A DNA stretch of 64,000 bases from Rhizodiscina lignyota (taxonomy: Eukaryota). The stretch is from positions 1,178,001-1,242,000 of the forward strand of contig ML978130.1 of the NCBI GenBank assembly GCA_010015805.1. The letters are read 5' to 3'. The position numbers and the translations under genes are program-made. The notes under the pieces were generated by a model. It saw only the letters and a list, made by a program, of their open reading frames with translations. It was not told the origin of the DNA and searched no databases. Of this stretch, positions 9,111 to 37,889 are shown one piece after another. The stretch's first letter is position 1, and each line of letters begins with the position of its first letter.

Positions 9111-9905
9111 TTATAATTCACTCTTACTGTGCGCGACCTCCGAAAGAACTCCAGTGGCAATGTCGTATTTCAACCCAACGAGCTGTGTCGTCTTTTTGAT
9201 AAGGGGAGAAGCTCTTAAGATCGCAAGATCTTCTCTGATGCTCTCTTCGATGCTGTGAACAGTATCAGCAATTGGATATTTCGTCAGACAGCGTTTGGAT
9301 TCTAACGTACGTCCCCTTGATTTCGCCAAATTTGGAGGCATCGATGGTTTCTTTCTCCTCCGGGGCAACTTCGATCAATGCCTTTCTGATGTCCGCGTCA
9401 TGAAAATGCGTCATGCCACAGTCTATACACGTCAGTCGTGCATTATGGAGCACAGGGGCTTCGACTCCCTTCGACGACATACCTGTATGATGCATAACAA
9501 CAATTGTGCCTGGAGCTCCAATTGTTTGAAGAACCGCTAGAGTTCTGATGGCATCAAACACCCGACCTCCAGCATTCCGAACCATTGTCGCTTCTATTGT
9601 TCTCGATCGTTAGCTGCAGCTCGATCTCCTCAGCGTATCCCGGCTCAGGATAGAAGAACACGAACTCAATGTTGAATCAATGCCCAGAATCTGGTAGGGG
9701 TTCAATCGCGGATCTGAGCATGATAGAACCACTACTCCGGTACCTGATTCTCTCATTTTGGGAACCAGTTGCATCAAACCGAGCGGAGTCTGATAGCTCT
9801 GAGCAATCTTGCTATTGAACCGTCAGATTTCTTCATATATTTTATCTTCGGGGAAAATAAATACCTATTGCGCGCCAACATTTGGATGACTGGGCCGGTA
9901 GCCAT
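9111..9905 (-). CDS. beta-class carbonic anhydrase (clade D-like)
   Basis: Spliced product contains SCSDPR, RNAGGR and HHTDCG (Cys/His/Cys zinc ligands plus Asp-Arg dyad); four short introns. Confidence 0.92.
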
Positions 9906-10625
9906 TTTCTCTCTGGATGCTGCAATCAATTTATCCGGGCGGGTTCGGTAAATGATGATAAGATCGATCACGTTGATTCTGAAAGGAACAATGGTCGGAA
10001 CTTAGCTATGATTCTATTGCGAAGTTTCAGGCGTGGATTGCTTGCCTTTATGTATGTAGAAGGTGAAGTGATACATGATTATGCCTGCATCCGCGGCACG
10101 GCTTGTACGGTCTGAGGCACCACATACTCGATCTCGGAAGGATTATATCATCTAATTCTGCTTTGTTATTCGTAAACCGTAAAAGCGATGTCATCACTGC
10201 TGTTGAAATAACTTAGCTAAGCAATGCATAAACCGAAGGCTTGGAACGAAGGCAAGTCCAAAAAGGGTGAGTACTCTCGCTGGCTGGGATCGGGCGTCCG
10301 AGCCAGGATCGGGCGCGCCGCGTGCGGGAAGGGACCGCCCAGTAGGAGCGCAGTGTCAAGTTACTTCATATTACTTCTCTACAGTCGATGGAGCCGGTCT
10401 CAACTTGCGGGAGATGACAACTGAAGAATAATCGTATCATAAGCACACAAGAGCTTGGCGAGCATCGTGTACCTGGAATGGAGCGATAGTTCGGTCATAG
10501 GACGAGAAAAATGTATATATCTAGCCATGGTCGAACGTCTCGTCGGCATCATTTTTGGAGCACCTACAATCTCAGATCCTTACTCTGCATTGCAAATTAA
10601 TTTCAAAAGCACAAAGTACTTCATT

Positions 10626-11750
10626 ATGCTCGGCTCTCAAGAATTAGTCCTAGCCATTGGCGGCACTGGCGCCCAAGGAATTCCCGTTGTCAAGGGCACG
10701 TTGACCGTCTGTCTGCTCTCCGAGATGTGCTGATTTCCTTTCAAGCTCTTTCATCCAATTCCAAGTACGCTGTACGCGTAATCACCAGGAATGCTGCTTC
10801 CACCGAGGCCCAGATGCTGTCATCAATTGCCGGCGTGGAGATTTTTGAAGGAGATTCCTACGACGAGGCCACACTCCGCAAAGCCTTCGACGGAGTGGAG
10901 TACGTCTTTGCTAATACAAATGGCTTTGCCATTGGAGAGAAGGCTGAGATCTACTGGGGTATTCGTCTCTATGAACTTGCCCGCGAATTTGGTGTCAAGC
11001 ACTTCCTCTACGCTGGCCTTGAGTATGCATCAAAATTGGGAAACTTCGATCCCAAATACCGCACTGGCCATCTCGATGGTAAAGGAAAGGTTGTTGATTA
11101 CCTGAAAGCTCAGCCTGTGACTCCAATGCCTTGGTCTGTCCTTACTTCCTGTCTTTACATCGAAGGGCTGAGCGAAATCCTTCAACCATTCCCTCACCCG
11201 AAAGAGCCAGGCACAATGATCTTTGCTGTTCCTTTGGGAGAAGGGAAATGTCCTCTTATTTACCTTGAAGACTATGGGGCTTATGCAAGATGGATATTCG
11301 GTCAGCAACTGCCTAAAGACTCACCGTGGATTGAGATTGTGAGCTAATCATTGCACCATCCCCATAGACACGCCAAATCGAAGTACAGGCATTGAACTTC
11401 ATGTTGCTACAGAAGACATTGCATGGAAAGACCTGGCTGCTGCATTCACCGAAGTGACAGGGCAGAAGGCAGTGTACCAGGATATCTCATTGGATGAGTA
11501 TTTCGCACTGGGAATCTTCCCCGAGCCAGACGCAAAGATCGGCTACTCGAGTTCTCCTGATGACTCTACTTTATTCACCTACCGCGAGAACTTTTCAGGC
11601 TTTTGGAACTGCTGGAAGGATAATTTGACAAAAAGGGATTACGACCTACTGGACGAAATCTTACCTACTAGAGTTAAATCAGTGAAGGAATGGATGACCA
11701 AGACCAAGTATGACGGGAAGCCGGCGCAGGTTTTGAAGACCTTTCGTTAG
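10626..11750 (+). CDS. NmrA-like family NAD(P)-binding protein (atypical SDR)
   Basis: IGGTGAQG Rossmann motif, VRVITRN, GHLDGKGKV; introns ~10696-10745 (GC donor) and ~11301-11368. Confidence 0.9.
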
Positions 11751-12870
11751 AACAGGTCCGCAGCTACCCCTTAGCTGTCTAGCCACATCATAGCACTCAG
11801 GGTTAACTTGATCAGGTCTCTTTAGGCCAATGTAGATATATTTGCATAAGATAAACCCATCTTCTAACCTACGGCGGCAGTGGTTTTTGCGAGAAGAGAT
11901 TGTGATTTGTCGGTCATTTGTTGTGAGTTTGTCACAGTGGTGGAAATAAATTAATGTTCTGATTCTGTTGCCGCTCGCCAAGTTTTGCTATCTTCATCAG
12001 TGCCTAAGGATCCGCCGGAGGCACCACTTCCCGACTTCCCGACTCGGAGAATAATCCTCTTTGGTATTGAAATGTGTGGGTCAAGTACTCGGGTAGCTAA
12101 AGTCCATTTTCGATGCCACGGCCAATTCTTCAAAGCTATAACTGAGGCCTGACCCACTACCAGTAGCATTGCACTTGAATATTTTGGTGGGTCTGAGTCG
12201 GATTCTAACAAGTCCCGGATCACCGTTCAAGCCTCTAACTCCGTACTTCCAATATTCTCGATATTGGTGAAGATCCGGACAAGAAGAGGCGGAATGAGCT
12301 CTGAAGCAATACAAGGAGCTCTCCCTTAGCGCTACCAATTTCATCGTCAAATTTACGCCGGAGTGGGAACCAGCAAACAAAATGAGTCGACTAAGATGGG
12401 TTGCAAAGTCAATGCAAAAAAACGATTTTCAGGCATGTTTGGACACAGAGTACGGGGTACTGCTGTACAAAAGTCGCGCAGGAGAAGTGCTGTTAAATTT
12501 GTCACGCTGAGTAGTCGGAATCACAGAGAAAAGTACAGAGACGAATACCTTCAACTTCGTGCAATAAGTGTACCAGTATCCACTCGTCAGGTAATACTGA
12601 TGCTCTTCAATTGGTGACTATACTGTTTGCAAGAGGCAAACGTTACGCAATTCACGAACTCCCAATTTGCTTTCTACTGACGAGCCCAGATATCGGGGCC
12701 CAGATTGTCGGACAATTCTACTCTAACCCAATAGCAGCCCGTACCTCGCAAATGAAATGGCTCAAACTATCCTCATCCAAGCCGTTCTGCACGCTGTATA
12801 AAATCCGTCCTAATGCAACGAAACTACGAACGTCCCCAAATTAACTCATCCAAGTACTAGTACATTCACA

Positions 12871-13296
12871 ATGAATTCGTTGAATCTTCGCCGACCAGCA
12901 AATCCAGCACTCACAAGTGAGTATGGCTCAGATCAGTATGCAGCGACACTGGAAAGATTGACCAGAACACTGGTGAATCTGCAATACTACTACGAACGAT
13001 TGACCGCAAGATTAGAAGTTGTAGAAGAACAACTTAGCGTGCATCGTACCAGCATACAAAATAGTCTTATCCCCTCCGACTTTCCTAGGCGCGCTTCAGC
13101 AACTCAGTCGTCCCAAGCAGCTCAGCAATCCCAGCAGCCCCTTCCACGAGCTCAGCCGCACAGCCCACAACAACAAGCAGGAAGAAATTATGGTTCTCTT
13201 TATACTGAACAGGGAGAGTCTGTGGGACAGCGCGCATATGGCAGTAATTTTGATTACTATCCGGATATCCGCGACCATCTGGGTGACCGTCAGTAA
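12871..13296 (+). CDS. hypothetical protein (coiled coil plus Gln-rich tail)
   Basis: 141-aa ORF, ATG in CACAATG context, TATAAA ~75 bp upstream, heptad-like segment LERLTRTLVNLQYYYERLTARLEVVEEQL. Confidence 0.55.
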   Translation: MNSLNLRRPANPALTSEYGSDQYAATLERLTRTLVNLQYYYERLTARLEVVEEQLSVHRTSIQNSLIPSDFPRRASATQSSQAAQQSQQPLPRAQPHSPQQQAGRNYGSLYTEQGESVGQRAYGSNFDYYPDIRDHLGDRQ

Positions 13297-14691
13297 CGAA
13301 GCCACTCAGAAGACTCAGGAGGTTTCAGCGGCTAAAGGATATGAGTGTATTAATGACACGTAGCTAAATACTAAGGTGCAACGCGAAACGAGATAATTTT
13401 CAAAGCTGATTATCTCGCCATGAGTGATGCTCGTGCTGTGTGCGCAGTACGATCAAGTAAACAACCAAAGTGCCTCATGAGAATTTGCCTATATGAATCT
13501 TCAGTCTCTTTTATCGTTATGCAACTGCTGTTCACATCTGCACCCAGAAAGGGAAAATGGCAGACTGCTAGACCTGGTACCCACTAGTGGTACTTCACAT
13601 ACAACTGTTGTGCTTAATATCGCGATAAAATATCCACCTGTAACCCAAATGAAATTAGCACTTAGATAGGAGTATGAACAATACCTCGAATTTGTAAAGA
13701 TTATGCCTAGATTTGAGCCTAATAGTAGCCCAGTTTTGGGAGTTTAAATGTATCATTAGTATCGGAAGCGCCGAACTTGTATGGGCAGCAACCCAGGGGC
13801 TACCATATTCGTGTATTAGATAGCTCATAATTATCTAATATATCTTTATCAGAGAAGTTTAAACTCTGTTAGCTATGCACTTCACTATGCAGTATAGTGA
13901 ATGAATTTAGAAGAAACCTATGCGACTACAGCCGGTAAAGGAATACAAAATGAGAACTAGCGAGTGCGGCATGGAAGCCAGTGAAGACAGCAACTGCACT
14001 TAGAGGCAAGGATTACGAAGCTGGAAATGATTACTAAGTTGTTGGAGGACATTCAACACTTCTTATCTAGAGATATAGCATCCAGGCAAGAATTACAAGG
14101 TAGTGTAGCAGAGCTTGGGGTGGCAATCCGGGGCACCCGACGCAATCCGGCCACAGAATTCCAATCCAGTTGATATTCTCATGTCATTACCAAATCACTT
14201 AGGTACTCAGAGCAAACATGGTGAGCAATCTCTTTCAAAGTGTCGATGAGCAGAAAATCGAGTTGACCGAAAGGACAGAAATTGAACATAAGAAGATGCA
14301 ACAGTGGCGACCATTGTCGTCTTACGGGACTCTGAGCGGAAGGAATGTAATGAGCCGTGACGCCGACAATCCAATCAGCACACGGGTGGGTCCGGACAAT
14401 AAATCTTTCATATTCAGAGGCAATTGCGAGATGTCGGGGAGAAGCTTGATCTTGGCTGGATCTTCGCGATGCGGATCTTGATCCCCCGGGGACTTCCCCG
14501 CAACCTTATATAAATCTTCATGTCGCAGCCAGATTCAGTCTCGGAATTTAATATCAACTTGTTCTCCTAAAGATACCATATCGGAAAGATTCCCTTGAAA
14601 GTACTGATAGTTACATTCTATCGTGGGCCTCGTCGATACTCTTACATTTCATACAACGCCAAAGCCGAGATTATACTCCGCCATTCGAACT

Positions 14692-15387
14692 ATGCCTAAA
14701 TCAACTGCAATTCTGTACCCGCTTACCTCGAGGCACCCAGACAAATCAGAAGCAGACTTCAACAAATGGTACGATGAAGTCCACGCGCCAAGTCGCGCCA
14801 GCTGTCCAGGAGTGAACCGCGTATCCCGTTACAAAGCGACAGACGGCCAGCAACCGGAATGGCTCGCCATTTACGAACTCTCCGACACATCAGCACTCCA
14901 AACACCGGAGTACAAAAAAGCGCGAGAGAATGACGGAGATGATGAATCAACCATGTTCAAATTGCTCGATCGCAGAGTATACAAAGTATTTAGCGACATA
15001 AAGCGAGAAGATTACGATACTTACACTGGAAACCGCGATATGATTCATGTCTGCACGGAGCCGATTAACCATGTCTCGGAAAATGAGTTCAACGCCTGGT
15101 ACGAGGACGAGCATGTGCCGTATCTGCAGAAATGTCCAGGCTGGCTGAGGTCGGTCCGTTGTATCATCGAAGACTCGCGAGACCCAAGGGATACGTCAAA
15201 CCCGGAGGGCAATACGGCTAGTAGAGCGAAGTATTTGGCATTCCACGAGTGGGAGGATGGAGACAAGGTGTATGCTTCGGATGAACACAAGTACGCGATC
15301 ACAACACCGTGGAGGATGAGAATCATGACGAGCATTGATGAAAAGAGCGAGGAGAGGAGGAGATTCAAGCTCTGGAAGCAGTTCTGA
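14692..15387 (+). CDS. tandem EthD/DABB (dimeric alpha-beta barrel) domain protein
   Basis: Two copies of the motif: DFNKWYDEVHAP...CPG and EFNAWYEDEHVP...CPGW, each followed by (W/Y)LA(I/F)(Y/H)E; intronless. Confidence 0.85.
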   Translation: MPKSTAILYPLTSRHPDKSEADFNKWYDEVHAPSRASCPGVNRVSRYKATDGQQPEWLAIYELSDTSALQTPEYKKARENDGDDESTMFKLLDRRVYKVFSDIKREDYDTYTGNRDMIHVCTEPINHVSENEFNAWYEDEHVPYLQKCPGWLRSVRCIIEDSRDPRDTSNPEGNTASRAKYLAFHEWEDGDKVYASDEHKYAITTPWRMRIMTSIDEKSEERRRFKLWKQF

Positions 15388-15985
15388 GTCTTCTACGAGA
15401 AGGGTGTTACGATAAGATTACGGAGATGCTTCTCAACTTGGTGTGTTTAGAGTGGGTCATGAATGTTCAGAGCCAACGATGAAGAATCAACCTTGGCCAT
15501 AGAACTTTGAAACAAATTTCAAGACTCGCCGTTTTAATTACTTTCTCTCGAGTCTGTGCAACTTGCAGGGGTGCATATTCAGGAGGTTGGTGATGTGGTT
15601 CCCAGCGCGCCATCATATTTCCCTAGACTTCCGAAGCTCCGCAGGACACACGACAAGCCCTATTCCGTAGCAGCATTCGAATCTGAAAATTGTTGCTTAT
15701 TGTGGCATGGTCCGCCCAATTCAGACCTGTCATCATACCCCTGCTCCCCCAGATTCCCCCCGCGCGCCGCAATGACAGCATCAACGCCAAAGTTGGCTTG
15801 ATTCGGGAAGTCCATGCGAAACGAGAAAGTCTCCGCCGCACAGCGTCAAGCGTCAAAGGGGAAGGTCACAGTAGGCAAATCGTCCGCTGCCGAAGCAATG
15901 ACTGCATTCGTGAATCAAATACGCTCGGGACCGTATATATGGCGCGCAATGTCAGCTCTCTTATGGCTTCATTATTCCTGGCAAG

Positions 15986-17515
15986 ATGAAGGACGCTGCC
16001 TTCACTGACGAGTCACAGCTGGCCCAGCTTGGGCACGCGCAGTCCTTTGAACGACAATTTTCGAAATGGTCTATGCTCGGCCTTGCATTCGCTATTCTCA
16101 ACTCATGGACGGCTCTTGCAGCGTCTCTCTCGTTAGCCCTGCCATCAGGTGGTCCAATCGCCGTGATATGGGGATTAGTTACAGCTGGAATCTGTAATTT
16201 GTCTCTTGCTGCGAGTCTTGCCGAATTTTTATCCGCATATCCAACTGCTGGGGGCCAGTACCATTGGGTCGCAATGATCTCACCTCCGTCGCTGAAACGA
16301 GGTCTCTCCTGGGTGACTGGGTGGATCAACTTGACAGGCTGGGTAGCATTAGTTGCGACGAACAGCTCCCTGGCCAGCACTCTGATCATCAATATCATTT
16401 CGCTCGAAGTACCAGACTATGATTTTAAGAGATGGCATCAGTTTCTTCTCTATCTTGGGATCACAGCGCTGACCTTTGTCGTCAACGCATTTATGATACG
16501 CCTGCTGCCACACATCAATATGTTCGCATTGGTTTGGAGTATTGCCGGATTTTTCATCATCTCGATCGTAGTTCTCGCTACGGCCGCTCCTGACTACGCG
16601 ACAGGAGAATACGTCTTTGCAACGTTCATCAACACGACCGGATGGCCAGATGGCATCGCTTGGCTACTTGGGCTTTTGCAAGGAGGTCTTGGGCTGACTG
16701 GCTTCGATGCCGTTGCTCATATGATTGAGGAGATCCCAAATGCTGCGATCGAAGGCCCAAAAATTATGATTTACTGTCAATACATCGGAATCAGCACAGG
16801 ATTTCTCTTCCTTATCGTCTTACTTTTCGTCTCCGGAGGGACTGCGAACGCGCAGACGATAATTGAGTCCTCATCTGGCCCGCTTCTAGAGACCTTTTAC
16901 ATCGCAACCAGTTCGAAGACTGGAGCAGTGTGTCTGCTGATATTTCCACTCATATGCTTCTGTTTTGCTGGAATAGCCGTCATGACGACCTCATCACGGA
17001 TGACATTTGCATTCGCAAGGGATGGAGGCCTTCCATTATCATATTTGTGGTGGAGGGTTCATAATGGGCTGAGCGTCCCGCTCAACGCTCTTTACCTCAA
17101 CGTTTTCGTGGTAGTGATATTCGGCTGCATCTACCTCGGCTCCAGCGTTGCTTTCAATGCTATCATTGCAGCTTCAGTGGTTGCTCTAGGAGTGAGCTAT
17201 GGAATACCGGTTGCATTGAACATGGCCCAATTGAGAAGGAAGCTACCAGAGCGAGTTTTCGCCCTTCCAGAGTGGCTCGGATGGACAGTCAACACTATTG
17301 GACTGGTATACACTATCGTTACAACGGTCTTGTTCTTATTTCCGCCTGCCATTCCCGTGGATGGAACAACAATGAACTATTGCATTGTCGCCTTTGCGAT
17401 TATCATCATCATTTCTACCATACAGTGGATATTTGACGGCCGGAAGAACTACGAGGGGCCTCGGATTACAATTGATGAAGTGCGCAGGGGGTCTATGGTC
17501 CCAGACTCCGTGTGA
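15986..17515 (+). CDS. APC-superfamily amino acid/choline/GABA permease (Uga4/Hnm1-like)
   Basis: 509 aa, ~12 hydrophobic segments, SLAEFLSAYPTAGGQYHW, GFDAVAHMIEE, SSRMTFAFARDGGLP; intronless. Confidence 0.95.
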   Translation: MKDAAFTDESQLAQLGHAQSFERQFSKWSMLGLAFAILNSWTALAASLSLALPSGGPIAVIWGLVTAGICNLSLAASLAEFLSAYPTAGGQYHWVAMISPPSLKRGLSWVTGWINLTGWVALVATNSSLASTLIINIISLEVPDYDFKRWHQFLLYLGITALTFVVNAFMIRLLPHINMFALVWSIAGFFIISIVVLATAAPDYATGEYVFATFINTTGWPDGIAWLLGLLQGGLGLTGFDAVAHMIEEIPNAAIEGPKIMIYCQYIGISTGFLFLIVLLFVSGGTANAQTIIESSSGPLLETFYIATSSKTGAVCLLIFPLICFCFAGIAVMTTSSRMTFAFARDGGLPLSYLWWRVHNGLSVPLNALYLNVFVVVIFGCIYLGSSVAFNAIIAASVVALGVSYGIPVALNMAQLRRKLPERVFALPEWLGWTVNTIGLVYTIVTTVLFLFPPAIPVDGTTMNYCIVAFAIIIIISTIQWIFDGRKNYEGPRITIDEVRRGSMVPDSV

Positions 17516-18705: not shown

Positions 18706-19770
18706 GTGCGGGAAGAAAGGAGATCGGAGCGAGCGTAAAGTGTATGTAGCTGGGAAGTATGAGTCACTGTCAGGTGCATGAAGGTGAATTAATTTGGATA
18801 TTGATAGCTGAGATCGAACCATTAATGTATGAACATAAAGAAGAGCGCGTAAATCTACAACACGGTTTAGTTTTGACCAACTGCACTTGATCACTTGCCC
18901 TGCGTCTTCCGAATGCCTATCGCGAGCGCTTTAGTCTTGCTCCAGATAAGGCAGAGTCGTTCTAGAAGTGCCCGAGAAGAGAGCAGATGTGCGTCATTTT
19001 CTGCCCGATGCGCTGAAAGCCGGCGTCATCGAACCAGATAACCAGAGTTATGCGAAGACAACTCGTACAGAACGGCATAGTATCATATGCAACGTATTCA
19101 TCGCCTGACGCAATTCCGCGTTGCAGTTCGCTGAGGGATCGCGCCGGCATTGATACGCAGCGCAATCACGGCCTACCGGGTGCATACGATCCGTGTCACT
19201 CGTGTTGTCTCAGAGGTTCGTGGAGAAATGCTGTATGTATAGAAATTGGCGAAGGGGACATTTGAACTGGAGTTGAAGGAGAGTGGCTGGGCTGTCAGCT
19301 AGGCCATTTGAAGCATGGATCGACCATGGTGGTGCGGAGGGTGCCTTTCCACGGACCCAAAGCTGCTTTTAAGGGGCTTCTTTTTTGAGAGGTTCACCAA
19401 GCTCACTTAAAACTGAGTCGCTGTGATCTCAGTAGTGTCCGTAAGACATTTTACTTCAACTAGCACAAAATCAACAAGACATGTGGCTGACCGATAAATC
19501 GGTTCCTTGGGTGGACGTGGTGGGAGATCTCATTCCGACTATCCGCACCTCTGTGCGGGGTGGTCAACCTGGGGTTCAGGAGCAAGCTTTAACTGTGTCG
19601 TGAATCTTCTCAAAGCCAATTGCAACTCTAATACCAAATTGTTTCAAGTTGTGTCGTCTTCTGATTTCTTCATTCCATATTTCAAGCCTGTCCATTCGGC
19701 TGCTCTCAGCGTAAATCACTTTGTCACCGAAGAACTCAAGTAACAAATTCAATATTAAAACATTACCATC

Positions 19771-20613
19771 ATGGGATATCCCGATCTTCAAGGAAAAGTG
19801 GCCCTTGTCACTGGTATTGGGCAAATGGGTGATACAGGAATCGGCCAGCAGGATCCCAATATCTGGGGCAACGGTGCTGCCATCGCCAAAAAATTATACG
19901 ATTATGGAGCGAAGGTGTTCGGGTGCGATTTGGTTCTTTCATCCGCAGAAGAGACACAAGGGCTCATCAAATCCGCATCGCCATCATCTAACACACCTGG
20001 ATCCATCGATGTCATCCAAGCAGACGTGACATCTGCATCCTCCGTAAAGGCCATGATCAACGCTTGCATCCAAAAGCATGGTAGAATCGACATTCTGGTG
20101 AACAATGTTGGCAGACCAGCGCCAGGCGGAGCAGGTGATATGGATGAGGCAACATGGGATGCTCAAATCAACGTAAATCTCAAGTCGGTCTTCCTTTGCA
20201 GCAAGTTTGCACTTCCGCATTTAGAGTCTGTTGGCGGAGTCGTTGTAAACCTCGGTTCCGTTGCTGGCGTCGGTTGGACGGGCAAGGCTCAGATTGGCTA
20301 TGCGACTACAAAAGGTGCCGTGATCCAGTATACGCGAGTTGCAGCGGTTGAGTATGCTAAGAGAGGCGTACGGTTCAACTGCGTAAGCCCAGGACTGGTG
20401 CACACACCGTTGGTGACCTTCATCGCGCAAAAGTATCCTCCGTACGATTATGATGCAACGATCAAAAAGAGGAACAACCAGGTGCCAATGGGAAAGATGG
20501 GACGCGCATGGGACGTCGCTGAAGGTGTGTGCTGGTTGAGTTCGGAAAAGAGTGGGTTTGTGACCGGTCATAATTTACTTGTTGATGGTGGGCAGGTGGC
20601 ATCGCTGTTGTAA
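19771..20613 (+). CDS. classical short-chain dehydrogenase/reductase
   Basis: KVALVTG, LVNNVG, catalytic YATTK, NCVSPG, VTGHNLLVDGG; intronless. Confidence 0.95.
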   Translation: MGYPDLQGKVALVTGIGQMGDTGIGQQDPNIWGNGAAIAKKLYDYGAKVFGCDLVLSSAEETQGLIKSASPSSNTPGSIDVIQADVTSASSVKAMINACIQKHGRIDILVNNVGRPAPGGAGDMDEATWDAQINVNLKSVFLCSKFALPHLESVGGVVVNLGSVAGVGWTGKAQIGYATTKGAVIQYTRVAAVEYAKRGVRFNCVSPGLVHTPLVTFIAQKYPPYDYDATIKKRNNQVPMGKMGRAWDVAEGVCWLSSEKSGFVTGHNLLVDGGQVASLL

Positions 20614-20816: not shown

Positions 20817-23800
20817 TCAGCGCCTTGTGTGTATCTTTTCGTGCCTTTTCCGATCATTCGCCCGCGTAAAAGCCTTCCCACAATCTGAACACACGTGTGG
20901 CCGTTCACCTGCATGACTGAGCTGATGGTTTCTTAAATGGAAGCCTCGTGAGAAGTTCTTGTTGCAAAGATCACAGCGCCAGCGCGATTCGATTGTTTTC
21001 TTCTTCACAGGAAACAACTCCATTTGGTCCTCAGGTTGTGGATGGAATGTCCGCCTATGCTTTTCCAGCTCTTTGTTTGATGCGAAGCCAAATTCTGCTA
21101 TGGTACAGTCAGGCACTTCGCAGCTGAATGGCCGATCATGGCGTTTGAGGTGGTGATCGCGCGTTTTGGCATCTTTGAACCCTTCATGGAAGTAGTAGCA
21201 GGTTAGTTTACGACATTTAAAGGTTCTGTCGCCGTAGAAGTATTGCAATGTCTGCCTGTCTGGACTAGATTTCTCAAGCAACGTGCGATTCCTCGTAAAA
21301 GTTTCGTTCAATGCAGAGAGACTGATGTCATTCCTTGCCGTTGGTCCCTTATTTTCATGTGATGATATATGAGTCCATATGCCAAGCAAGTAGTCGTAGA
21401 GAGGTGACTCCTGGAATCCCTCACAAGCGGCGAGGGACGCAGGTGGAAACGAGTTTTGATCGGTTTCAATGGAAAAACAAATCATGAAGTCCTCCAGGGA
21501 ATCGATGAGCTCGTTCATGGCAGTTTGAGCATCAGTATCTGTTCCAAGGACTTCATCTTTCGCGTCCACGATAGCTTTGACGTGTTGGGACCATTTTGCG
21601 ACTGCATAGTCCTGGAAGCCAAAGTCCCCATTCAGCGCATAATTGAGAAGTTGTGGCTCAGTGACGTCCTTCTTGAAGCATGGAAATGTGAGGTAGCGAA
21701 AGCAAAGCGCAGCAAGGCCGCATTCAACTATCGCCACTCTGATGATATCGCTTTTTGCAAAATGGCTACTAGTGGTCAGTACTAGGCCAAAAATACTAGC
21801 TAGACTTGGCTTTCTTACATCCTGGCTGTTATATGAACAAGCTCCACTCTGTCTCCAGGAAGAATGGAAACCAGCGAGCCGCACAACTCGTGGATATGAC
21901 TGCGAAGTTTGCGCGATTCAAAGTCTATAGTGTCGCGATCGGGCTCAATCGAGATTGCTGCCTGTATTTCAAGGCATTTCAAAGGTCTTTTGGCGCATAC
22001 CATCCAACCTAAGAGTTTGCGGACTATCTGCCATTGGTTCGGGTGGAGGGTGCGCCGCACGCGCTCGATGATGCGATTATAGCTGTCAGCATAAATATTA
22101 GCTCACTTCTGCGAAGTGATATGAAAAATAATACGAGCTTCAACGGGAATTGAGTGGCCCACTTACGCTTGCTCCAGGCCTCGGGGAAAGTGATGTTCAG
22201 ATATTTCTTCGTAGAGCTGGTCTCGCGTCTCTTGAGCGTTCAGGTTCTCCATCACCAAGACTGCGAACAAGAACATGCCTATGACGTAAAATAAGCTGAT
22301 GATGAGTCCTCGTGTTGCTTTTGCTTGCCTCTAGATCCGATGCAGGTCATGTCGCATATTCCTGATGTCTGCTTCTGGGATAGCTCAAATTTATGCTGTA
22401 ACAGGGAGCATTTGTCAAGAACAAATACTCTGATGTCATCTTTGATGTCTCTGGCTTCGAGGGAGGTGACTCCAGGGGGCGATACTAAAGTTGAGAAAGC
22501 TCTTTCGATGTCTTTGAAGTCTTGGCTGATGATAAGCACACGTAGTCGTCCGGGTTCCTGTTCGTCACAACGAGCTATTAAAGAGGTGATTTCAGACAAA
22601 AAAAGCTTTCTTTGGCCTGGTTCACATTCGTCGAGCCCATCAACGACCATAAAAATCTTGGGCAACGTTTCGCAGAATAGTTTAATGAGTTGAGATGCCA
22701 ATGATGTCGATGATAGGACAACCTCGCCGCTTAACATCCGTTTGTCGGAGCAAAATGGGACAAGAACGCGACACTGGCTAAGCAGTTGACTCAGAAGTCC
22801 TTTCAAGATAGACAGACAAGTATTTCGAGATGGGTCGTTCGCTTTACAGTAGTAGTAAGCTGTTGGATTCTTTGCATCTTTTAAACACTCGTCGATGACC
22901 ACAGATGCAAGTATAGTCTTCCCTGTTGATGTTTTAGTACCACTGAAACATGCGTGATGTTGTCTAAGTGACAAATCGCGTAGTTAAAGGTCGTAAGGTC
23001 GTGTATGACGTACCAGCACCAGGAATACCTTTGAGCCACAATAAAGATGATACAGGAATATCTGATTCTCTCCAATTCTCGATTTTTGGATGCCTGAGGA
23101 TCCAGTTCCCGCTTGCTTTGCTGGCTTTCCTTATTGAACGATGTGCCTCATGGTCTTCTACGTTGGACGACGCTCCCGCAAACCAGTCGATAACGACAAC
23201 ATACGACTGATTTGCCTCAGCCTCTTCCCGCTTCTTCAATGATTGACGGTCTCGATGGTATTGGTCTATGTGACGATAGATTGCTTCGCGGTCCTGCTGG
23301 TATTGTCCGAAGTGAATTACTGCAGCTCGGTCGATGAGGAGACGCTTATGTCGACGCAGGCCTTCCAGAATACTATGAAATCGTGTTTTGAAATCTTTCC
23401 ATACAGATCGAAATATTTGACGCCAGACTGCACGGAGAATAAATTAGCGTCTCACTGTCAGATGCGGGTCGAATGCCTTTGTGGGAATATCACACCTTTT
23501 CCGAAGAAGAATCGGATTGCTCTCCTATGGAATTCGAGGATGTCGGTGTATACTAATCCGAGTACGGTGCGCATTTCCTCGTTTTGGTCGAAGAGCTTTT
23601 TGTATTCCATGAGTAGCGGTATGCTCTCACCGATCTGCTCATATGCATCTAAAAGGACGTCGAATGAATCGGTCCAGGTGCTCGCTACCTTTTTCGCGCA
23701 TATCAACGTTAGCTCAAGTCATACACTATTTGATAACCAAGCAATAAGAAGAAGCGTCAAGTGTCGCTGGGTCACTCTACAGCAAGACCAAATGACATGT

Positions 23801-24144
23801 GAGGAGCTTTTCCATGAACATCGTCGTCGGACATAGAAAGTGTAAATACCTGCCTGGAGCATGAATTTCATTGGTCCCCAGATGAAAGCGATAAACTCAT
23901 TCGCATTTAGAAACACTTCAACAATACTACCGAATTGTTCCATAGCCTCCAGGAATGACTTTATTCTAGTCATGTTCATATTCGTCCTTGTGACTTCCTG
24001 TGTCTTTTGTATTTGGATGGCGGTCGTCTGTACATCTTCGAGTGTCGTAAATTCAAAATCTTTAAGTTCTTTTGGAGTGAGTCGCGTTTTAAATTTGGTC
24101 AAAGCCGTATCAAAGCTGTCCTTCAACTTCAAGTCGGCCATCAT
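20817..24144 (-). CDS. NACHT-type NTPase (fungal NLR-like) with helical N-terminus and four C-terminal C2H2 zinc fingers
   Basis: Walker A GIPGAG|KT split by an intron, Walker B IFMVVDGLDEC, winged-helix-like WMVCAKRPL...LVHITA; fingers CRKLTC..HLKRH, CEVPDC..HRRTFH, CDLC..HQLSH, CSDC..HEKIH with an AGERP linker; multi-exon. Confidence 0.9.
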
Positions 24145-24883
24145 AAAATGAGCCCGTCAGTGTTCCACAACATGATGTGGAGAAGAAAGAGATGCAGCCT
24201 GATGGTAAGAGCCATTGAATTGCTAACGTCATCAGGCAAACGATACTCGAGATTGCGCATGTCCCAGCGCAGGGAACAAGACAAGGAATCGCGCATGAGT
24301 GTCAGCCTCGACACCCTGAGAAGGGACAGAAACGGCAGGCCAAGACCAATGGGGAATAGCGTAGCGCCACGCGTGCGAGCAGCAAGAAATGAAACAACTC
24401 CTTTATCCGCGACAGGACGACTAGCTTCCAATCGCTTTCCATTCGACATCGTATTTCGTCAATCAGTACGAGGAATTTGCGCCTATGCCGCTTCATCCCC
24501 ATGCTCGTGGCTGGCTGCGCGCTCCATGAGTGCAGCTGAGGAGGAGGCAGTGCATGAGGCAAACACTATGCATCCTCAACGCAACCCATTCAAAAGGCGA
24601 GGTTGAGTCCCGCAAGAGACGCTTTCCAAAACCACGAGGGAACTACTTTAATTTTGTTGGCTATCTTCGAAATTCTAGAACTCTAGTATCCGTTTACTTC
24701 CTGAGTCCGGTTTCCATGCCATTCGTAAGGCTTTCTCAGCCTCCCAAGTGCAAGGCTGAAAGCTGCAGACCGCAGTTTTGTTCCTAATCTTGTCGGAAAT
24801 ATCCCATTCACTTGGTTGTATTATGACTCTCTTCTCGCGTGCAGTGTTAATCTTCTCTTCGAGGAGATGATTTTATTGAATAC

Positions 24884-27800
24884 ATGACTTCTATCAAGCG
24901 GTTGTTGAATGATGACGAACAGGTTCCCGATCGTTACGGGCAAATCAACAAAGGGGTCAATTGCATTGGTTTGGACAGCACAGATGAGTTCAGGTAAAAT
25001 CTGCATGGGCGCTGGAAGGCTCTTTGTTAACCAAAACTATTAGTGAGCTTATGGTCTCGATTAACCAATCTTGGCCCGATGTCTGGACCAGCCTGATTGG
25101 ACATGATGCAACCCAAGTATTACAAGATCAGTCAAGCAAAATCCCAGAATGCATTCAGATGCCCTCCATTGCAGAAAATGATATTGAATCGTGGGCTGAT
25201 GGGACATTCTCGTCATCAAGCGAGATGCCCCCAGGAGATCCGGGTATCGCCAATATTCCGATGGACGAAGAGTCACAGAAGCAAGTGCCGGATATCTGCT
25301 ACGGCATGGTAGGTCACTAAATCGTCACTTTAATATTCGCAGTACGCTAATCAGTCGCTGAAGATTTACCGTTCCTCCGTCAAACTTGTGGGCAGTGGGA
25401 CGCACATAGACGAGAGGTTGAAGGCTGCGATGCGAGACCGACGTGATACCCATCAGCTTCTAAACTTGGCAGTTGGTAAAGGGGATCCCACCCAGTTGAC
25501 GTTTACTTTCCCGGATGGCACTGAGTTCGGGATCTTGAACAGCCGTGACACCAGAGGGATACAAGATCTCATGGCCAAATCTCCCAAACCTTCCTTACAC
25601 TTTGAGAGTTTCGATGGATTCACGGAGATCATTCCTCTTCGTGAAGCTCTAGGTAGAGCACTCAATTCTAAGGACGCCATTGCTCGTATAGATATCAACA
25701 TATATGGACCACTTTCTCAGTTCTCTTCAGTTGGAAAGATCCTCTCAGGCCACAAGGTTTTTCTTCAACGCCCTGATCATCAACGGCGAGGAACAGCATA
25801 CAACAATCCGCATATAGTCACATTCCCTGGTATACACATATCTAGTTCTAACGATGTGCCACAGAAACTGGAGAATCTCCAGGCTTCTGTCCCTGATACC
25901 GAGCGCTTTCAGAAAACGATTGCAAATGTCTACGCGTCTCTTAAAAGAAGAACAAACCTTCATCAAGTTGAAGGAAGTCATCTCTTGAAGACGCTATTAC
26001 TTCCGTGGGTACTTTCAACTTATTCTACTCGTATTATTTTATATTGCAAGCGTTGTCTTTCTATTTCGTTCAATGTCCCGCACGCTTAGACCAGCATTTG
26101 ACAATGATCAATAGTCATCAGATGGAAGCACTAGATTTCATGATTCAGCGCGAAGCAGGTCCAATTCCTCCAGAATATCGTCTTTGGAGACCGATGACGG
26201 AAACAATGGAAGGCTGGTACTACATTACTCGCAGCTCCAGATTGAAAAGGTTCTGATATTCTCAGGTTCCGCCACGCAATAACTCATCAGAGAGTCCGCA
26301 CAGAGTGGTCTGAAACTGGAGGTGGTATCCTTGCCGATGAGATGGGAATGGGGAAATCGTTGTCTATCCTCGCACTTGCCGTGAAGACCACAAGAGACGC
26401 ACAGTCCTGGGCGACACTCAGCGACTTGGAGAGTCAGCCCACTCTTAAAGAGCAAAAACGACGTTCATCAGCAACACTGATAATTGTACCATCGGCTTGT
26501 GAGTATCTCACATCTGCAATGTCTTTGCTGGTGGCTAAGCATTATTAGTATTGATTAATAGCTGGGTGAAAGAAGTCAAGAAGTAGGTACTTTGTAAAAT
26601 TCAAGATTCGTGCAACTGCAATATAACACAGCAATATACAGGCACCTCTGCGAAAATGTACGTTTCATTACGTACCACGGCCAAAGGAGAGATCAGGTTT
26701 CACTACACTTTCAGGATGCGGACATAGTTATCACGACATATCATACGCTCGTCGTGGACTTCAAGAATAAGCGTAGTCCTATACATCATACAGAATGGTA
26801 CAGGCTCGTTCTAGATGAAGGTGAGGAAATAATCGCATATTCACAGTCATGTCAAGTCTGACCTGCTCCGCAGCACATATCATTCGACGGCAGTCCACAA
26901 CATTCAATCGAGCCGTATCTGAAGTTTCAGCCCACTCACGCTGGTGTCTAACTGGGACGCCCATACAGAACCGCCTCGATGACATCGGCGCTCTCTTCTC
27001 CTTTATCCGAGTACACCCGTTTGACAGTATTGCAAACTTCCGAAGACATATCTCTATTCCATACGAGGAAAATGGAGAGCGCCGTGATATTGCCCTTCAA
27101 TCGTTCGCCCTGCTACTGGACTCCACCTGCCTCCGAAGAACAAGAGACCTGCTCCAACTGCCCAATCGCCACGATCGACTTCATGTGATCAATTTCACTG
27201 ATCAAGAACGTGATCAGTACAACCAGACAAAGAAGATCATGAACCGCACCTTACGACAACGTGTCGGAGACAGCTTTGTAAAGTCTCGGTTTGGTATGTT
27301 CCAGATACAGCTTCAGCTACGCATCTTCTGCAATCATGGCACCTTTCAACAGAGTTTCGCTTGGGCGAGGCGAAGCTTGCGGGATGAACAGGAGGCTGCC
27401 ATGTGCTTGTTTGGGAACCTGGGAGAGGTACGATGCTCCGCATGCCATCAGGTGGTGCCTATCATGGACTCGAATACCATCTACCGAGCGGATCAGAGGT
27501 CATGTGCGCACACGTTATGCTCTGAATGTGCAGAAGAATCTAGAACCGATCACCCCAGCGAATCTGTAAATGTGATTCAATGTCCGCTCTGCATTGCCAG
27601 CGGATGCCCAGGCTCTCTTGTGCCAGGTGTACAGGGCGAGATCAATGGGAACCATTATTTTCGAACCAATGGCATCTCGTCCAAGATGAAGGCTGTGACT
27701 TCCGATGTTAAAAGAGGTCTGTGGGAGTCTAAAACGTAAGTGCAATCCCATAGTATTTACAGCTGCTCAAGCATACTTATTTCCGTTCGTGCAGGATTGT

Positions 27801-28355
27801 TTTCACAAGCTGGACGCACACTTTAGATTTGGTAGAGAAACATTTCGAGAAGGAATCTATCCCATTCGAACGAATTGATGGGGAGTCCCCTTTACCCCGC
27901 CGACAGAAGATTTTGGATGATTTTGGACGACTGAACACAACGCCGGTATTAATAATGACTACGGGAGTTGGTGCCTTCGGGTAAGATGGGTGTCTCGAGA
28001 CTCCGCTATTATCCGCATCATTTCGAAGCTGACTGTATATAGTCTCAACTTGACATCAGCAAATCGCATATTTCTGGTCGAGCCACAATGGAATCCGAGC
28101 GTGGAAAATCAAGCAATTGCAAGAGCGCAGCGCCTAGGACAGGATCGATCTGTCATTGTCACTCGGTACATGGTCGAAGATACGATTGAACAGGTCAGTG
28201 GAGAAAAAGGTCGTGTATGAGATCGCCCCTTACCATATATACAGGAAATGCTCTCACAGCAAGAGCGTAAGCTCCGGATTGCGGAGCTCGGAAATGCTAC
28301 ACAGAGCAGCGAAGGTCAAATCAGTATTAGTTATGGTGGCGACTGGTCGGCATAA
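24884..28355 (+). CDS. SNF2-family ATPase of Rad5/Rad16 type with inserted C3HC4 RING finger
   Basis: GGILADEMGMGKS, IVITTYHTL, LVLDE|AH, WCLTGTPIQN, RING CSAC...CAHTLCSEC...CPLC, IVFTSW, GLNLTSANRIFLVEPQWNPSVENQAIARAQRLGQ. ATG 24884 (MTSIKRLLN) inferred; about 10 introns including a micro-exon at ~26549-26582. Confidence 0.92.
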
Positions 28356-29031: not shown

Positions 29032-31470
29032 ATGCCTCCTTCCACATTGCTCTCTCTCCGGGTGGAGGCCCTTTCAGGTGGCCCCCTTTTCTCGCACTAT
29101 CCGAATGTATCTACAGCCACCTTTAAGCCTGCACGCCTTCTACCGACGAGCTGTCTCGCCGTTGCTTTTCCGCATTGGCCATCCCGCACGATGGGTGAGT
29201 TTGCACGTTTTGCCTCTTCGATACGAGGTGAAGGCCCAGCTCACAACAGCAACGGGAGCGAGAAACTCCCTCTCGGTAAGCAAGACAACATCTGGTGGAG
29301 TGATACGAGAGCTAATAATGAGAAATTCAAGTTGGACAACATCGTTGAGAAGATAGAAGAGCCCACGGCGCTCTCGTACTCAGAATGGGACACGCCACTC
29401 AAGTCCAGCGATATGATGCCGAAGAACATTAACCAAGTAGTCTGTGGCCCAGCTCCAGTGGCTTTGAAGACGCAGATTGGATTTGCTGACTATCACGGCC
29501 AATCCTCCCCTTCCTCGGTGTATGATGCGGCGTCTGCTTTCGCTACGACCTTCACAGCTGGAGTTCAGGGAACGGGAATGGAAAGGGCGATTCTGGCAAA
29601 TGTGGCCTCGGAGTACGAGGAGCTCGTTTCTAATGCCTGGGCTCAAGAGCCACTACCCGCTCCGAAGTCTCTTCCCCAAGTAACGAGAATCTCTGCTCGT
29701 CTACAGAGAATAGCACCTCCAGCACTTGCCCTTAGCAATCTCCAGGCACAGTTAGCTGTTCCCCTGCGTAAGAGCAGGTATCAGCCAGTGAAGAGAATTC
29801 CTCCTCGCTTGTGCGATAGACCTCCACCTCCCCCACCGCGCAAGAGGAGGTCCGGTTCAGCCGTGAGGGTTTCTGCTCGTAATAAAAAGCGAGCACCAAC
29901 ACCTTTCCCCCTCCGCAAGAAGAACGGTAAAGCGCCAGCGCAATCCTTTTCTCGCCGACCGATCGCTCCCATTAGAAACGTAAGCTCGCTTACTAAGTTA
30001 GTTGACGACGAGTTAACTCGCGTTGCAGAGGAAGAGCGTCAATGGCAGAAGGCGAAGAACGCGTGGGTGACCAAGACAAAGGCAAGGATCGATGCCTTGA
30101 GGGTGGTCCCAGACGGATTTGAGGACGACAGCGATGAGGAATCAAGAGCGGAGACGTGTTATAAGTCCTTCTTAACCATCTCTTCCGCCGATATGGTTCC
30201 CGCCGAGCTAGCTCAAGCGGAAGATGAGAGCGATGACAAGCCCATAGCGAAGAGGTGTTACAAGTCGTTCTCAACCATATCTTCTGGCGATCTGATTCTC
30301 GCTCAGCTAGCTCCAGCGTCACCGGAATCATATATCTGGTATACTTGCCCATCAGACAATGTTGAACTGTCCGGCTTGTCGAGCTATTCATGCCCGAGAT
30401 CAATGCCTAATCCATTCGATTCCTCTATGGCACCAGCGAGCGGCTCGCCATCGGTTTATTCATGTGTATCTTCGATTTCGGGTTCCTCATCATCCCGCTT
30501 AGGTGACGATGATGGAGTGGTTGCTGAGCACATGACAATGGCCCAGATACTGCCCACTTCATCCACACTGCTTCCGCCCGTGCACTACGCATCGGATACT
30601 GTCAAGCTGGTTCACCCTAAACCAGTCTATCCCGTCAAACTCAGCAATCTCGAAGCGGGTATCCTCGACGATGCAGTCCCGAATGTCGCACTCTGTGTTG
30701 CCTCCCCAGAGAAGAACGAGCTTTTCGCAATTGGCGAAAATGATGACGAGGAACAAGGTAAGTCTCCAACGTCAGTGAAGCCTGTGGCGCCTCTGGCATC
30801 AATGAGGGCCCAGACGACAGGTGCCGTTAACCGGAGTGAGATCTTGCGACTGATCCTTTCAGGATCCGGTGCATTCGCTTCTGAGAGTATTCGTCCACTT
30901 TCCGTCTTCACTGCCAAAATTATCATTCCTAACGCCGCTGCGAGTGGCTGGTCCGGTGATATTATGCTCCCGGTAAGCAACGCTCCTCATCGCTCGTCTT
31001 CGCGCAAGGCAGCTTCCGCTGTTGAAAAGAAAGGTAAGTCGCCGGCTGTCGATGAGCGGCAGCCTGCCCCTCAGAACCCTCTTGCTATCCCTCCCCGCCC
31101 ACCTGTCGCTGAGACTACGCCTCTCCTTGCACGAGGTGAGATTGGAAGCGCCTCCGAGGACTTGGAGATATCCGAGTATCTTGGTCTGCATCCGACCCTC
31201 TGTGCTGGCATCGCACCACAGTTGCTTGCTGGCATCCAGAATCAAATGGAACAGTTGCATGAGTGTCTTTGCTCGCCCATAGATTTCGGCTACGAAGGCG
31301 ACGAGGATGACTGGACACCTCCGTATATACCTGACCAGTCTAAATCATCGCCCTTGGTGTCTACTTCCGAGCAGGAGCCATGGATACACAGGTTGGTCAA
31401 TGGTTTGCGTGAGAATGTGGGTAACCTCTTTCCAACAAAGGAGGTTCGACGTGTTAGGTCGGGTGCATGA
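29032..31470 (+). CDS. large Ser/Pro-rich, probably disordered hypothetical protein
   Basis: Uninterrupted ~810-aa ORF with basic patches (PRKRR, RNKKR) and an internal 33-aa duplication; start uncertain (29032 or 29191). Confidence 0.7.
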   Translation: MPPSTLLSLRVEALSGGPLFSHYPNVSTATFKPARLLPTSCLAVAFPHWPSRTMGEFARFASSIRGEGPAHNSNGSEKLPLGKQDNIWWSDTRANNEKFKLDNIVEKIEEPTALSYSEWDTPLKSSDMMPKNINQVVCGPAPVALKTQIGFADYHGQSSPSSVYDAASAFATTFTAGVQGTGMERAILANVASEYEELVSNAWAQEPLPAPKSLPQVTRISARLQRIAPPALALSNLQAQLAVPLRKSRYQPVKRIPPRLCDRPPPPPPRKRRSGSAVRVSARNKKRAPTPFPLRKKNGKAPAQSFSRRPIAPIRNVSSLTKLVDDELTRVAEEERQWQKAKNAWVTKTKARIDALRVVPDGFEDDSDEESRAETCYKSFLTISSADMVPAELAQAEDESDDKPIAKRCYKSFSTISSGDLILAQLAPASPESYIWYTCPSDNVELSGLSSYSCPRSMPNPFDSSMAPASGSPSVYSCVSSISGSSSSRLGDDDGVVAEHMTMAQILPTSSTLLPPVHYASDTVKLVHPKPVYPVKLSNLEAGILDDAVPNVALCVASPEKNELFAIGENDDEEQGKSPTSVKPVAPLASMRAQTTGAVNRSEILRLILSGSGAFASESIRPLSVFTAKIIIPNAAASGWSGDIMLPVSNAPHRSSSRKAASAVEKKGKSPAVDERQPAPQNPLAIPPRPPVAETTPLLARGEIGSASEDLEISEYLGLHPTLCAGIAPQLLAGIQNQMEQLHECLCSPIDFGYEGDEDDWTPPYIPDQSKSSPLVSTSEQEPWIHRLVNGLRENVGNLFPTKEVRRVRSGA
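30121..30318 (+). repeat. diverged 99-bp in-frame tandem duplication
   Basis: EDDSDEESRAETCYKSFLTISSADMVPAELAQA versus EDESDDKPIAKRCYKSFSTISSGDLILAQLAPA; also visible at the nucleotide level. Confidence 0.85.
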
Positions 31471-36494: not shown

Positions 36495-37889
36495 TCATAA
36501 GCCGAATGGATACGTCTCGTTAGCACTTAGTTCTTCCTTTGGCTGCGCAATCTCGAATGCTTTGACGGCTTCCGTTCGATCGAACCACACCAGTGCATCG
36601 AATTGCCGCGGCAGAATGGCCTTGCTGTAATGACTATATCTCTCGGTATCGGGCCGATATATGACTCCAATAAACCGCTCGAGTCGCGGCTGCATTAGCG
36701 CCTCTCGGACTTCGTCGTTCTCCGGTCTGTTACGGAGGTCCAACAGAAAACTCGGAATACCGGTGTCGTGCATGATGTGCTCGTAGCTGTCTTCACGCGA
36801 CGGGTTCACTTGCTTGATGCGCATCGGTTCATCCCAATTATCAGCCGCTGCTACGGTGCTGTCATTGCCGCCATGAGTGCTGCAGCCGATAATGGTGACG
36901 TCTTCCGGCGAATCCTTGAAGTGCTGCTTGCATAATTGGCCGATGTTGTGCTCGCCTCGCGACTGTCCCATGCTCGTGTATCTCGCATCACCAACATGCG
37001 AATTGTGCGCCCATATAACAGCTTTTGCTCCAGGTTTGACCTTTAGCAGCAACCGCAAGGTTTCGAACATATGGCCATCGCGCAAGTTCCAAGAATCCTC
37101 GTCGGCGTAGTACATAGCACGGTAGTACTGCTCCGAATCCTTGACCGTACGAGCATTCATCTCAGCATCGAGAAAGTCGTCTCCGTCATGCATTGCGAGA
37201 GTCAAGCGTTTAGCAAGCAACTGGCGGAGCATTTCGACGACGCCTTTCTCGCATGGTGCGTAACCCTTGTTGAGCGCAACGCGGCCATATCGCGCTGGGT
37301 TCTCAACCCAAGGCTCCAAGCAACCATACCGTTTGCGAGCGATCGCAGCTGTCTCCGGGTCGCGTTCTTCCAAGTACTCTATCACGGCCTTGATGCTTGC
37401 TCCCATGCTGTAAAGGTCCAGGCCGTACACGCCGGCTCGCTTGTTCGGGGGCAGATGCGCATTGTGCTCTCGCAACCAGTCTACGAATTCTTGCATCTCC
37501 TTGTTTCTCCACATCCATCGTGGGAAATGCTTGAAGATTGGTTCACGAGCGACACTCTTTGGCGCAGGATTGCTTCGGACAAAGCGATCGACGGCACGTA
37601 CGTCGGGCCAGTCTCCTTCGATGCCCACGACGTTGAAGCCATGGTGGGAGATTAGACGCTGGGTGATGGCTGCACGAGCTCGATAGAACTCTGATGTACC
37701 GTGACTGGACCATATATCAGCCTCAGCCTCAGCATTTGTTATCTGCCGATTATCTTACCTAGCGTCTCCTATCAGAACCACCCTTGATTTGGCAAACTTG
37801 TCGAAGCAGGGTCCGAATGCAGCATCATCAATGCCCGGGAGCTTCTGCGCTGCGCTTTTGACGGTTTCTGCAACTGTACGAGTCATCAT
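36495..37889 (-). CDS. erythromycin esterase (Ere) family hydrolase
   Basis: VLIGDA|SHGTSEFY, IEGDWPD, GVYGLDLYS, SWNLRDGHM, IWAHNSHVG, ERFIGVIYRP, QFDALVW; one intron at ~37705-37758. Confidence 0.9.

Follow-up and report, generated by a model that had tools for sequence, protein, structure and literature searches.

Conserved linkage of an NLR-like NACHT-zinc-finger gene and a Rad5/HLTF-like SNF2/RING gene in Rhizodiscina lignyota and other fungi

The 64,000-nt stretch of contig ML978130.1 of the fungus Rhizodiscina lignyota analysed here (GenBank assembly GCA_010015805.1, positions 1,178,001 to 1,242,000; hereafter the window) contains two divergent genes, one encoding a NACHT-type nucleoside triphosphatase (NTPase) with C2H2 zinc fingers, resembling NOD-like receptors (NLRs), and the other encoding a SNF2 ATPase with a RING domain. 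An earlier note, made from the sequence of the window, had proposed that they constitute a two-component sensing or genome-defence module. We found that homologues of the two genes lie together in members of three classes of Pezizomycotina, while all other neighbours change. Gene order in filamentous fungi decays quickly, and the retention of a head-to-head pair across three classes is therefore a strong pointer to a functional link. We think it rather probable that the two genes represent one conserved, co-inherited and probably co-regulated module acting on nuclear DNA.

Conservation of the pair in named species and metagenomes

Homologues in named species were taken from up to 120 best matches for each of the two proteins, where an unmatched species is no evidence of absence, and two homologues were assigned to the same contig when the size given for the longest contig was equal for both partners' matches in that species. 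On this basis both homologues share a contig in at least 30 named species besides the window, and some of these contigs are short, three of them measuring just 38 kb, 41 kb and 11.8 kb. The linked species belong to the Dothideomycetes (Pleosporales and Venturiales), the Leotiomycetes (Cadophora, Leptodophora, Rhexocercosporidium and Xylogone, the first three of which we take to be Helotiales) and the Sordariomycetes (Colletotrichum, Fusarium and Monosporascus); R. lignyota itself is a member of the Dothideomycetes, order Aulographales. The partners carry consecutive accessions or locus tags in 14 species, and in 2 others the numbers differ by two. GenBank accessions were consecutive in nine of the ten pairs looked up (Cadophora sp., Rhexocercosporidium, Lindgomyces, Venturia effusa, V. 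nashicola in two assemblies, Xylogone, Fusarium albosuccineum, Colletotrichum chlorophyti and Boeremia) and two apart in Colletotrichum sublineola. Members of the protein clusters add consecutive pairs in C. eremochloae and F. decemcellulare (two assemblies), and locus tags follow one another directly in Leptodophora, Ascochyta rabiei and Monosporascus sp. 5C6A and differ by two in Didymosphaeria.

Orientation could be assessed in metagenomes, where scanning contigs with 20 aligned SNF2 proteins yielded 80 loci, in which the NACHT gene was searched for with tblastn. We counted as informative the 38 loci in which 1250 nt or more of sequence precede the projected SNF2 start, and in 26 of them the NACHT gene is found upstream on the opposite strand, which, together with the linkage in named species, bears out the conserved divergent synteny that the earlier note had set as the key test and argues that the genes belong together as a unit and do not adjoin by chance. 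The first matched segments of the two genes mostly lie 0.5-1.8 kb apart, and the zinc-finger exon was detected in 19 loci, that is, wherever the contig reaches far enough. Three loci depart from the usual arrangement: in L029 the NACHT-zinc-finger gene lies downstream and convergent, tail to tail with the SNF2 gene (9706-17005), and in L030 (1096-5408) and L039 (1093-4407) 3-4 kb are inserted between the two genes. Among the loci in which no upstream NACHT gene was seen, L020 and L038 offer just 1.3 and 2.3 kb of upstream sequence, L068 and L076 form an outgroup clade in the SNF2 tree, and L050, L055, L061, L064 and L079 are too distant to be placed in it. The tree built from the large SNF2 exon has 62 rows in the subfamily, with paired loci in every deep clade of it, and the pairing therefore looks ancestral.

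The conservation is restricted to the two genes. No other open reading frame (ORF) of at least 80 aa in the window has a match in the 80 loci at E<=1e-8, and clustering of the flanking ORFs of 19 regions (18 loci and the window) gave no family present in more than three regions; the flank families that do recur stem from near-identical contigs or represent a common SDR. Flanks that differ in every genome, together with a patchy taxonomic distribution, would suit a pair that travels as cargo in a transposable or other horizontally moving element. We regard such mobility as very improbable, given that no direct or inverted repeats of at least 20 nt bracket the pair in positions 14000-36000 of the window, that neither a transposase-like nor any other third gene is common to the loci, that both families have mostly one match per species among the matches listed, and that divergence follows taxonomy, with identities of 68-79% within the Helotiales rows and 35-50% between classes.

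Linkage could also persist with no shared function, as an old bidirectional-promoter pair, through cis-regulatory entanglement or by chance retention, the two products serving unrelated processes. Microsynteny conserved by regulatory constraint is known in animals (PMC3514665). Against such an explanation, which we judge quite improbable, stand the loss of all other neighbours across three classes while the pair stays, the continued linkage of the pair after rearrangement, the joint occurrence of the genes across species, with several heavily sequenced genera absent from the best matches listed for both, and the prediction that both products act on DNA.

Gene models and domain architecture

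The positions given for the two genes by the earlier note hold up, as does its description of a shared region of about 740 bp (739 bp between the start codons; Table 1). With its ATG at 24144 on the minus strand, the NACHT gene could be spliced into a single open frame of 939 aa with Pfam domains of the NACHT type, interrupted by six introns of 50-165 nt. The predicted protein aligns over ~925 positions with P0003, P0008 and P0038 (53.5%, 49.3% and 42.4% identity, respectively), and the orthologues are likewise ~940 aa long. Its N-terminal position, where NLRs have their effector or signalling domain, is occupied by DUF7708, the match to which falls short of the cut-off since the domain is divided by an intron; PF24809 is annotated in homologues of the protein, and the term DUF7708 was not found in the literature searched. 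In the NTPase domain both nucleotide-binding motifs are intact, the Walker A motif (GIPGAGKT) spanning intron 3 (around 23026/22920) and the Walker B motif (DGLDEC) lying at ~22641. The junction created by the GC-AG intron (...SRGMFLF...) is also used in the public R. lignyota model P0001 ('C2H2 domain-containing protein', 869 aa), which matches the gene at 100% identity and skips two segments that are kept in the orthologues.

Table 1. Coordinates of the two genes, their domains and the region between them, in window positions
Feature	Positions	Strand	Details
NACHT-zinc-finger (NLR-like STAND ATPase) gene	20817..24144	-	ATG 24144, stop 20817; 7 exons, 939 aa
Exons of the NACHT-zinc-finger gene	24144-23850, 23684-23496, 23427-23014, 22922-22329, 22278-22167, 22082-21819, 21768-20817	-	
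N-terminal helical domain DUF7708, exons 1-2	23496..24144	-	Pfam PF24809, 17.7 + 22 bits
NACHT-type P-loop NTPase	22329..23120	-	Pfam NPHP3_N, 26.3 + 74.3 bits
50-nt GC-AG intron (intron 4)	22279..22328	-	boundaries GCAAGC...CATAG
Winged-helix domain after the NTPase	21819..22082	-	Pfam GPIID_WHD, 39.6 bits
All-helical region, ~170 aa, winged helix to zinc fingers	21228..21768	-	AlphaFold2 (AF2) model md315896c1df9
Four C2H2 zinc fingers	20829..21215 (21215-21138, ~21122-21042, 20975-20913, 20891-20829)	-	Pfam zf-C2H2
Intergenic region between the divergent start codons	24145..24883	.	739 bp
Rad5/HLTF-like HIRAN-SNF2-RING gene	24884..28355	+	~11 exons; 926-957 aa depending on intron 1
Exons of the SNF2 gene	24884-~24968 (?), ~25019 (?)-25308, 25364-26004, 26115-26216, 26266-26498, 26549-26582	+	
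Exons of the SNF2 gene, continued	26642-26820, 26874-27735, 27795-27980, 28043-28193, 28245-28355	+	
HIRAN-like domain	25364..25810	+	AF2 model me2292da6281e and Foldseek
SNF2 ATPase N-lobe region	26115..27430	+	Pfam SNF2-rel_dom, three exon pieces, 95 bits
C3HC4 RING between the ATPase lobes	27434..27592	+	pattern match
Helicase_C lobe	27795..28193	+	Pfam Helicase_C, two exon pieces

Of the features of an NLR, a NACHT P-loop domain with Walker A and B motifs and a winged helix after it are both present in the protein. Its C-terminus has no superstructure-forming repeats (LRR, WD40, ANK or TPR) and consists instead of a helical region followed by four C2H2 fingers, which is a non-canonical NLR architecture. 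In the AF2 model of the last exon (316 aa; predicted local distance difference test, pLDDT, 88.7) helices extend over residues 11-178 and are followed by four beta-beta-alpha fingers; the helical region has no Pfam match. The finger array was matched by Foldseek to the DNA-bound arrays of CTCF, WT1 and Zif268, and when the family profile was compared to PDB sequences, the best 60 of 262 matches were all zinc-finger proteins. In 25 of 25 species finger 4 has the same recognition helix (R.ND..R), suggesting a conserved DNA target, whereas the helix of finger 3 is variable.

Several proteins related to the NACHT-zinc-finger protein (P0251, P0260, P0050 and P0080) are considerably longer and have other N-terminal domains. 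Proteins of ~1600 aa with a HET domain (PF06985) are encoded in Colletotrichum simmondsii and C. scovillei, and the much longer relatives from Aspergillus varians and Exophiala sideris carry an N-terminal PNP_UDP domain (PF01048). These HET- or PNP_UDP-bearing forms may be domain swaps or fused gene models. Furthermore, one of the paired metagenome loci (L037) contains a second, more distant NACHT-like gene (1623-3288, minus strand) beyond its NACHT-zinc-finger gene.

For the SNF2 gene on the plus strand, the ATG at 24884 proposed in the earlier note is backed by an N-terminal peptide, M.SLKRLLN, that is kept in most of 29 homologues. At the other end, a last intron of 51 nt restores the conserved C-terminal tail of the family and leads to the stop at 28355. 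The internal junctions are those of the public R. lignyota model P0121 ('hypothetical protein, partial', 709 aa; 100% identity), in which the last exon and the 5' exons, together with the beginning of the HIRAN-like exon, are missing. Both public models, which are on one 1,336,433-bp contig, look faulty and are shorter than the models supported by homology. The N-terminal peptide (24884-24910) contains an LxxLL-like word at the extreme N-terminus of the protein, is followed by a variable linker and could serve in docking or as a nuclear signal.

The 213-aa N-terminal exon of the SNF2 gene was modelled with AF2 using 29 homologues (pLDDT 80.5), and the ten top Foldseek matches of this model were all to the HIRAN domain of HLTF (E 1.6e-4 to 7.1e-4; template-modelling score on the target 0.63-0.72), with K. 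lactis Rad5 appearing lower in the same list. The Pfam HIRAN model has no match in the gene, and the domain is recognised by its predicted fold alone. SNF2 motif I, GGILADEMGMGKS, starts at 26345, and the DEAH box is interrupted by the intron at 26820/26874. The cysteine and histidine columns of the RING are invariant in 30 and in 25 homologues in two alignments, and PF14634 is annotated in two homologues; no Pfam RING model matched the SNF2 exon of the window at E<=0.01. Taken together, the HIRAN-like fold, the SNF2 motor, the RING and the Helicase_C lobe therefore make up the whole Rad5/HLTF architecture. The earlier domain reading, NACHT with zinc fingers on one side and SNF2 with a C3HC4 RING on the other, was thus correct and is sharpened by the HIRAN-like fold.

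Yeast Rad5 and human HLTF have the same order of domains, with a HIRAN-like fold, a SNF2 ATPase, a C3HC4 RING between the lobes and Helicase_C. For the orthologue P0186 the best solved relative by sequence is K. lactis Rad5 (1e-58, 202 bits), followed by generic SNF2 enzymes (4.7e-36). In contrast to Rad5 and HLTF, the paired protein has an N-terminal peptide and a C-terminal tail of its own, a patchy distribution and a NACHT neighbour. Its 120 best matches (41-58% identity) belong to a restricted range of taxa and bear names such as RAD5B and rad5c. Because of these names and limited taxa, the modest similarity to Rad5 and the lack of a Pfam HIRAN match, identity with the core Rad5 is unlikely, and the gene is probably a Rad5/HLTF paralogue. 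A Pfam HIRAN match was found in none of nine ORFs from unpaired loci (eight long ORFs and one exon of L052), and in these ORFs core Rad5 was not separated from the paired subfamily.

A possible nuclear module and its relation to known systems

Because of their domain content and of the conserved, mostly divergent linkage of their genes, we infer a single process on nuclear DNA in which both products take part. We are fairly confident that they belong to the same pathway; that they meet in a direct complex is a more tentative proposal. The zinc fingers would tether the NACHT protein to a conserved sequence or structure in the DNA, and nucleotide-dependent switching or oligomerisation of the NACHT module would recruit or activate the Rad5-like partner. 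The HIRAN domain of this partner might then engage a DNA 3' end, its SNF2 motor remodel the DNA (a fork or a nucleosome) and its RING ubiquitinate a target on chromatin or in the replisome. The process served by such a module could be a specialised form of damage tolerance, or the control of repeats or foreign DNA.

The possibility of a complex was addressed by structure prediction with three chains of the Cadophora sp. orthologues, residues 1-270 and 612-937 of the NACHT protein with residues 1-335 of the SNF2 protein as partner. The prediction gave values of 0.67-0.68, which dropped to 0.00-0.01 when the partner was replaced and stayed at 0.67 when chain 2 was replaced, so the specificity mark was not reached and the values weigh neither for nor against a complex.

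In the proposed module the Rad5-like enzyme would be the effector arm of an NLR-like switch, in a manner comparable to Rad16, an enzyme of SNF2-RING type, and its adaptor Rad7. We take the Rad7-Rad16 complex of global-genome nucleotide excision repair to be a SNF2-RING enzyme working on DNA with a dedicated non-catalytic adaptor, and in this respect liken it to the pair. Rad7, however, is an LRR protein and not a STAND ATPase with zinc fingers, and we know of no conserved head-to-head arrangement of the Rad7 and Rad16 genes. The complex is mentioned in the abstract of PMC11205155.

A different explanation of the divergent arrangement is that the NACHT-zinc-finger protein is a signal-gated transcription factor which binds the intergenic region and controls the Rad5-like gene, with no complex between the products. 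The model would be MalT, a bacterial STAND transcription factor with a helix-turn-helix effector domain and a sugar ligand; like MalT, the NACHT-zinc-finger protein unites a STAND ATPase and a DNA-binding array in one polypeptide, a likeness that concerns the domain combination alone. Fungal pathway regulators often adjoin their targets, the genes diverge from a short shared stretch (333-1207 nt in six well-bounded pairs), and a conserved DNA target is what the invariant finger-4 helix implies. Yet a crude search revealed no motif common to five of the six well-bounded intergenic regions, the linkage is kept in loci whose shared promoter is disrupted (the convergent L029, and L030 and L039 with their insertions), and regulation of this kind leaves the conserved N-terminal peptide and the family-specific N-terminal region of the SNF2 protein unexplained. 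The persistence of linkage with a broken promoter and the SNF2 protein's own N-terminal peptide weigh somewhat against a link based purely on the promoter, and we doubt that the NACHT protein acts as a MalT-like regulator of its neighbour. The words enriched in a k-mer analysis of 26 regions between first matched segments, also a crude approach, look like SNF2 5' coding sequence and not like a promoter motif.

Regarding the genome-defence role suggested by the earlier note, the conserved DNA target suggested by the invariant finger-4 helix fits a housekeeping-like or repeat-directed role better than a diversifying non-self receptor. The same helix, the predominance of one match per species and the divergence in step with taxonomy lean against a classical diversifying non-self sensor. 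Because the invariant helix points to a conserved target, we consider a role of the pair in defence unlikely. We would likewise give only a small chance to the most far-reaching version of the proposal, a nuclear NLR pathway in which the STAND/NACHT ATPase would sense a nucleic-acid feature through its zinc fingers and switch on the adjacent HIRAN-SNF2-RING enzyme, would serve genome surveillance against mobile, foreign or aberrant DNA, and would have arisen before the split of Dothideomycetes, Leotiomycetes and Sordariomycetes and been lost as a unit in many lineages. If true, this would be the first eukaryotic NLR-type receptor with a DNA translocase and ubiquitin ligase as its effector.

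Several observations weigh against one conserved module acting on nuclear DNA, the reading that we favour. Two loci inside the SNF2 subfamily clade (L049 and L052) have more than 9 kb upstream and no NACHT gene within the locus. The metagenome loci are anchored on the SNF2 gene, which places NACHT-zinc-finger genes with no SNF2 neighbour outside the sample, and they are not all independent, L043 and L044 being identical in the tested exon, as are L059 and L060. Consecutive accessions show gene order and not orientation, and for Fusarium oxysporum and the Eurotiomycetes there was no same-contig pair among the matches listed. The pairwise distances of the two families across 25 species correlate with r=0.96 (Mantel, 0 of 2000 permutations as high), which fits co-inheritance but is expected of any two vertically inherited genes. 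The crude search of the six well-bounded intergenic regions gave no conserved motif, and DUF7708 need not be a dedicated docking domain, since it heads many other fungal NLRs (for example the ankyrin form P0112).

Neither C2H2 fingers on fungal NLRs nor an NLR with a genomically linked partner is new. In NWD2/HET-S-type pairs an NLR adjoins its partner gene, the linkage is conserved, and a short amyloid motif is common to the N-terminus of the NLR and the partner. The conserved adjacency of NLR and partner is also found for the NACHT/SNF2 pair. A BLASTP comparison of P0012 with P0127, in contrast, revealed no common short motif (best E 0.45, not at the N-termini), and the partner here is a predicted nuclear DNA enzyme, whereas that of NWD2/HET-S-type pairs is a pore-forming or cell-death protein. 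As for the fingers, the main text of PMC12258605 reports 34 Sordariales NLRs that carry C2H2 fingers, in most cases at the C-terminus, and considers that these might be integrated decoys or binding domains; as presented there, they are of the same non-canonical kind as the NACHT-zinc-finger protein. The terms SNF2, helicase and HIRAN do not occur in that main text, the supplements not being covered, so the partner gene is not described there. No description of a NACHT-zinc-finger/SNF2 pairing was found in the literature searched, which did not cover subscription papers and supplements, nor in passages of PMC3218866, PMC8227032, PMC4835503 and PMC13449251, the HIRAN matches in the last of these being to the author name Hirano. 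As far as this literature goes, a Rad5-like enzyme as the partner of an NLR is unprecedented.

We believe that the pair is of interest from both sides. To our knowledge most fungal NLR-like proteins are without a known function or partner, and the pair gives an NLR-type ATPase a concrete candidate effector. Conversely, the Rad5/HLTF family would include a widely distributed fungal offshoot linked to a STAND switch, which may point to a so far unrecognised means of targeting a fork-remodelling E3 enzyme to particular DNA. The pair is present in tractable fungi, and relatives from Colletotrichum, Fusarium, Alternaria and Trichoderma are among the matches listed.

Neighbouring genes in the window

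The pair is surrounded by genes of accessory type, in agreement with the earlier note: a PDR ABC transporter, NmrA, EthD, a permease, an SDR, an N-acetyltransferase, an erythromycin-esterase-like protein and a methyltransferase. An SDR adjoins the 3' end of the NACHT gene in the window (19759-20610, plus strand) and in the near-identical metagenome contigs L043 (1716-2480) and L044 (3957-4739); this adjacency is probably due to chance, since the SDR family is very large. Directly downstream of the SNF2 gene lies an intronless ORF of 812 aa (29032-31470, plus strand), for which we obtained no Pfam match at E<=1e-5, no Atlas score of 0.9 or above and no match in the 80 loci. Further along, among the transporters, the methyltransferase and the N-acetyltransferase, which is of the arylamine type, an ORF on the minus strand (36498-37754) gives a full-length match to the Pfam erythromycin esterase family (445 bits).

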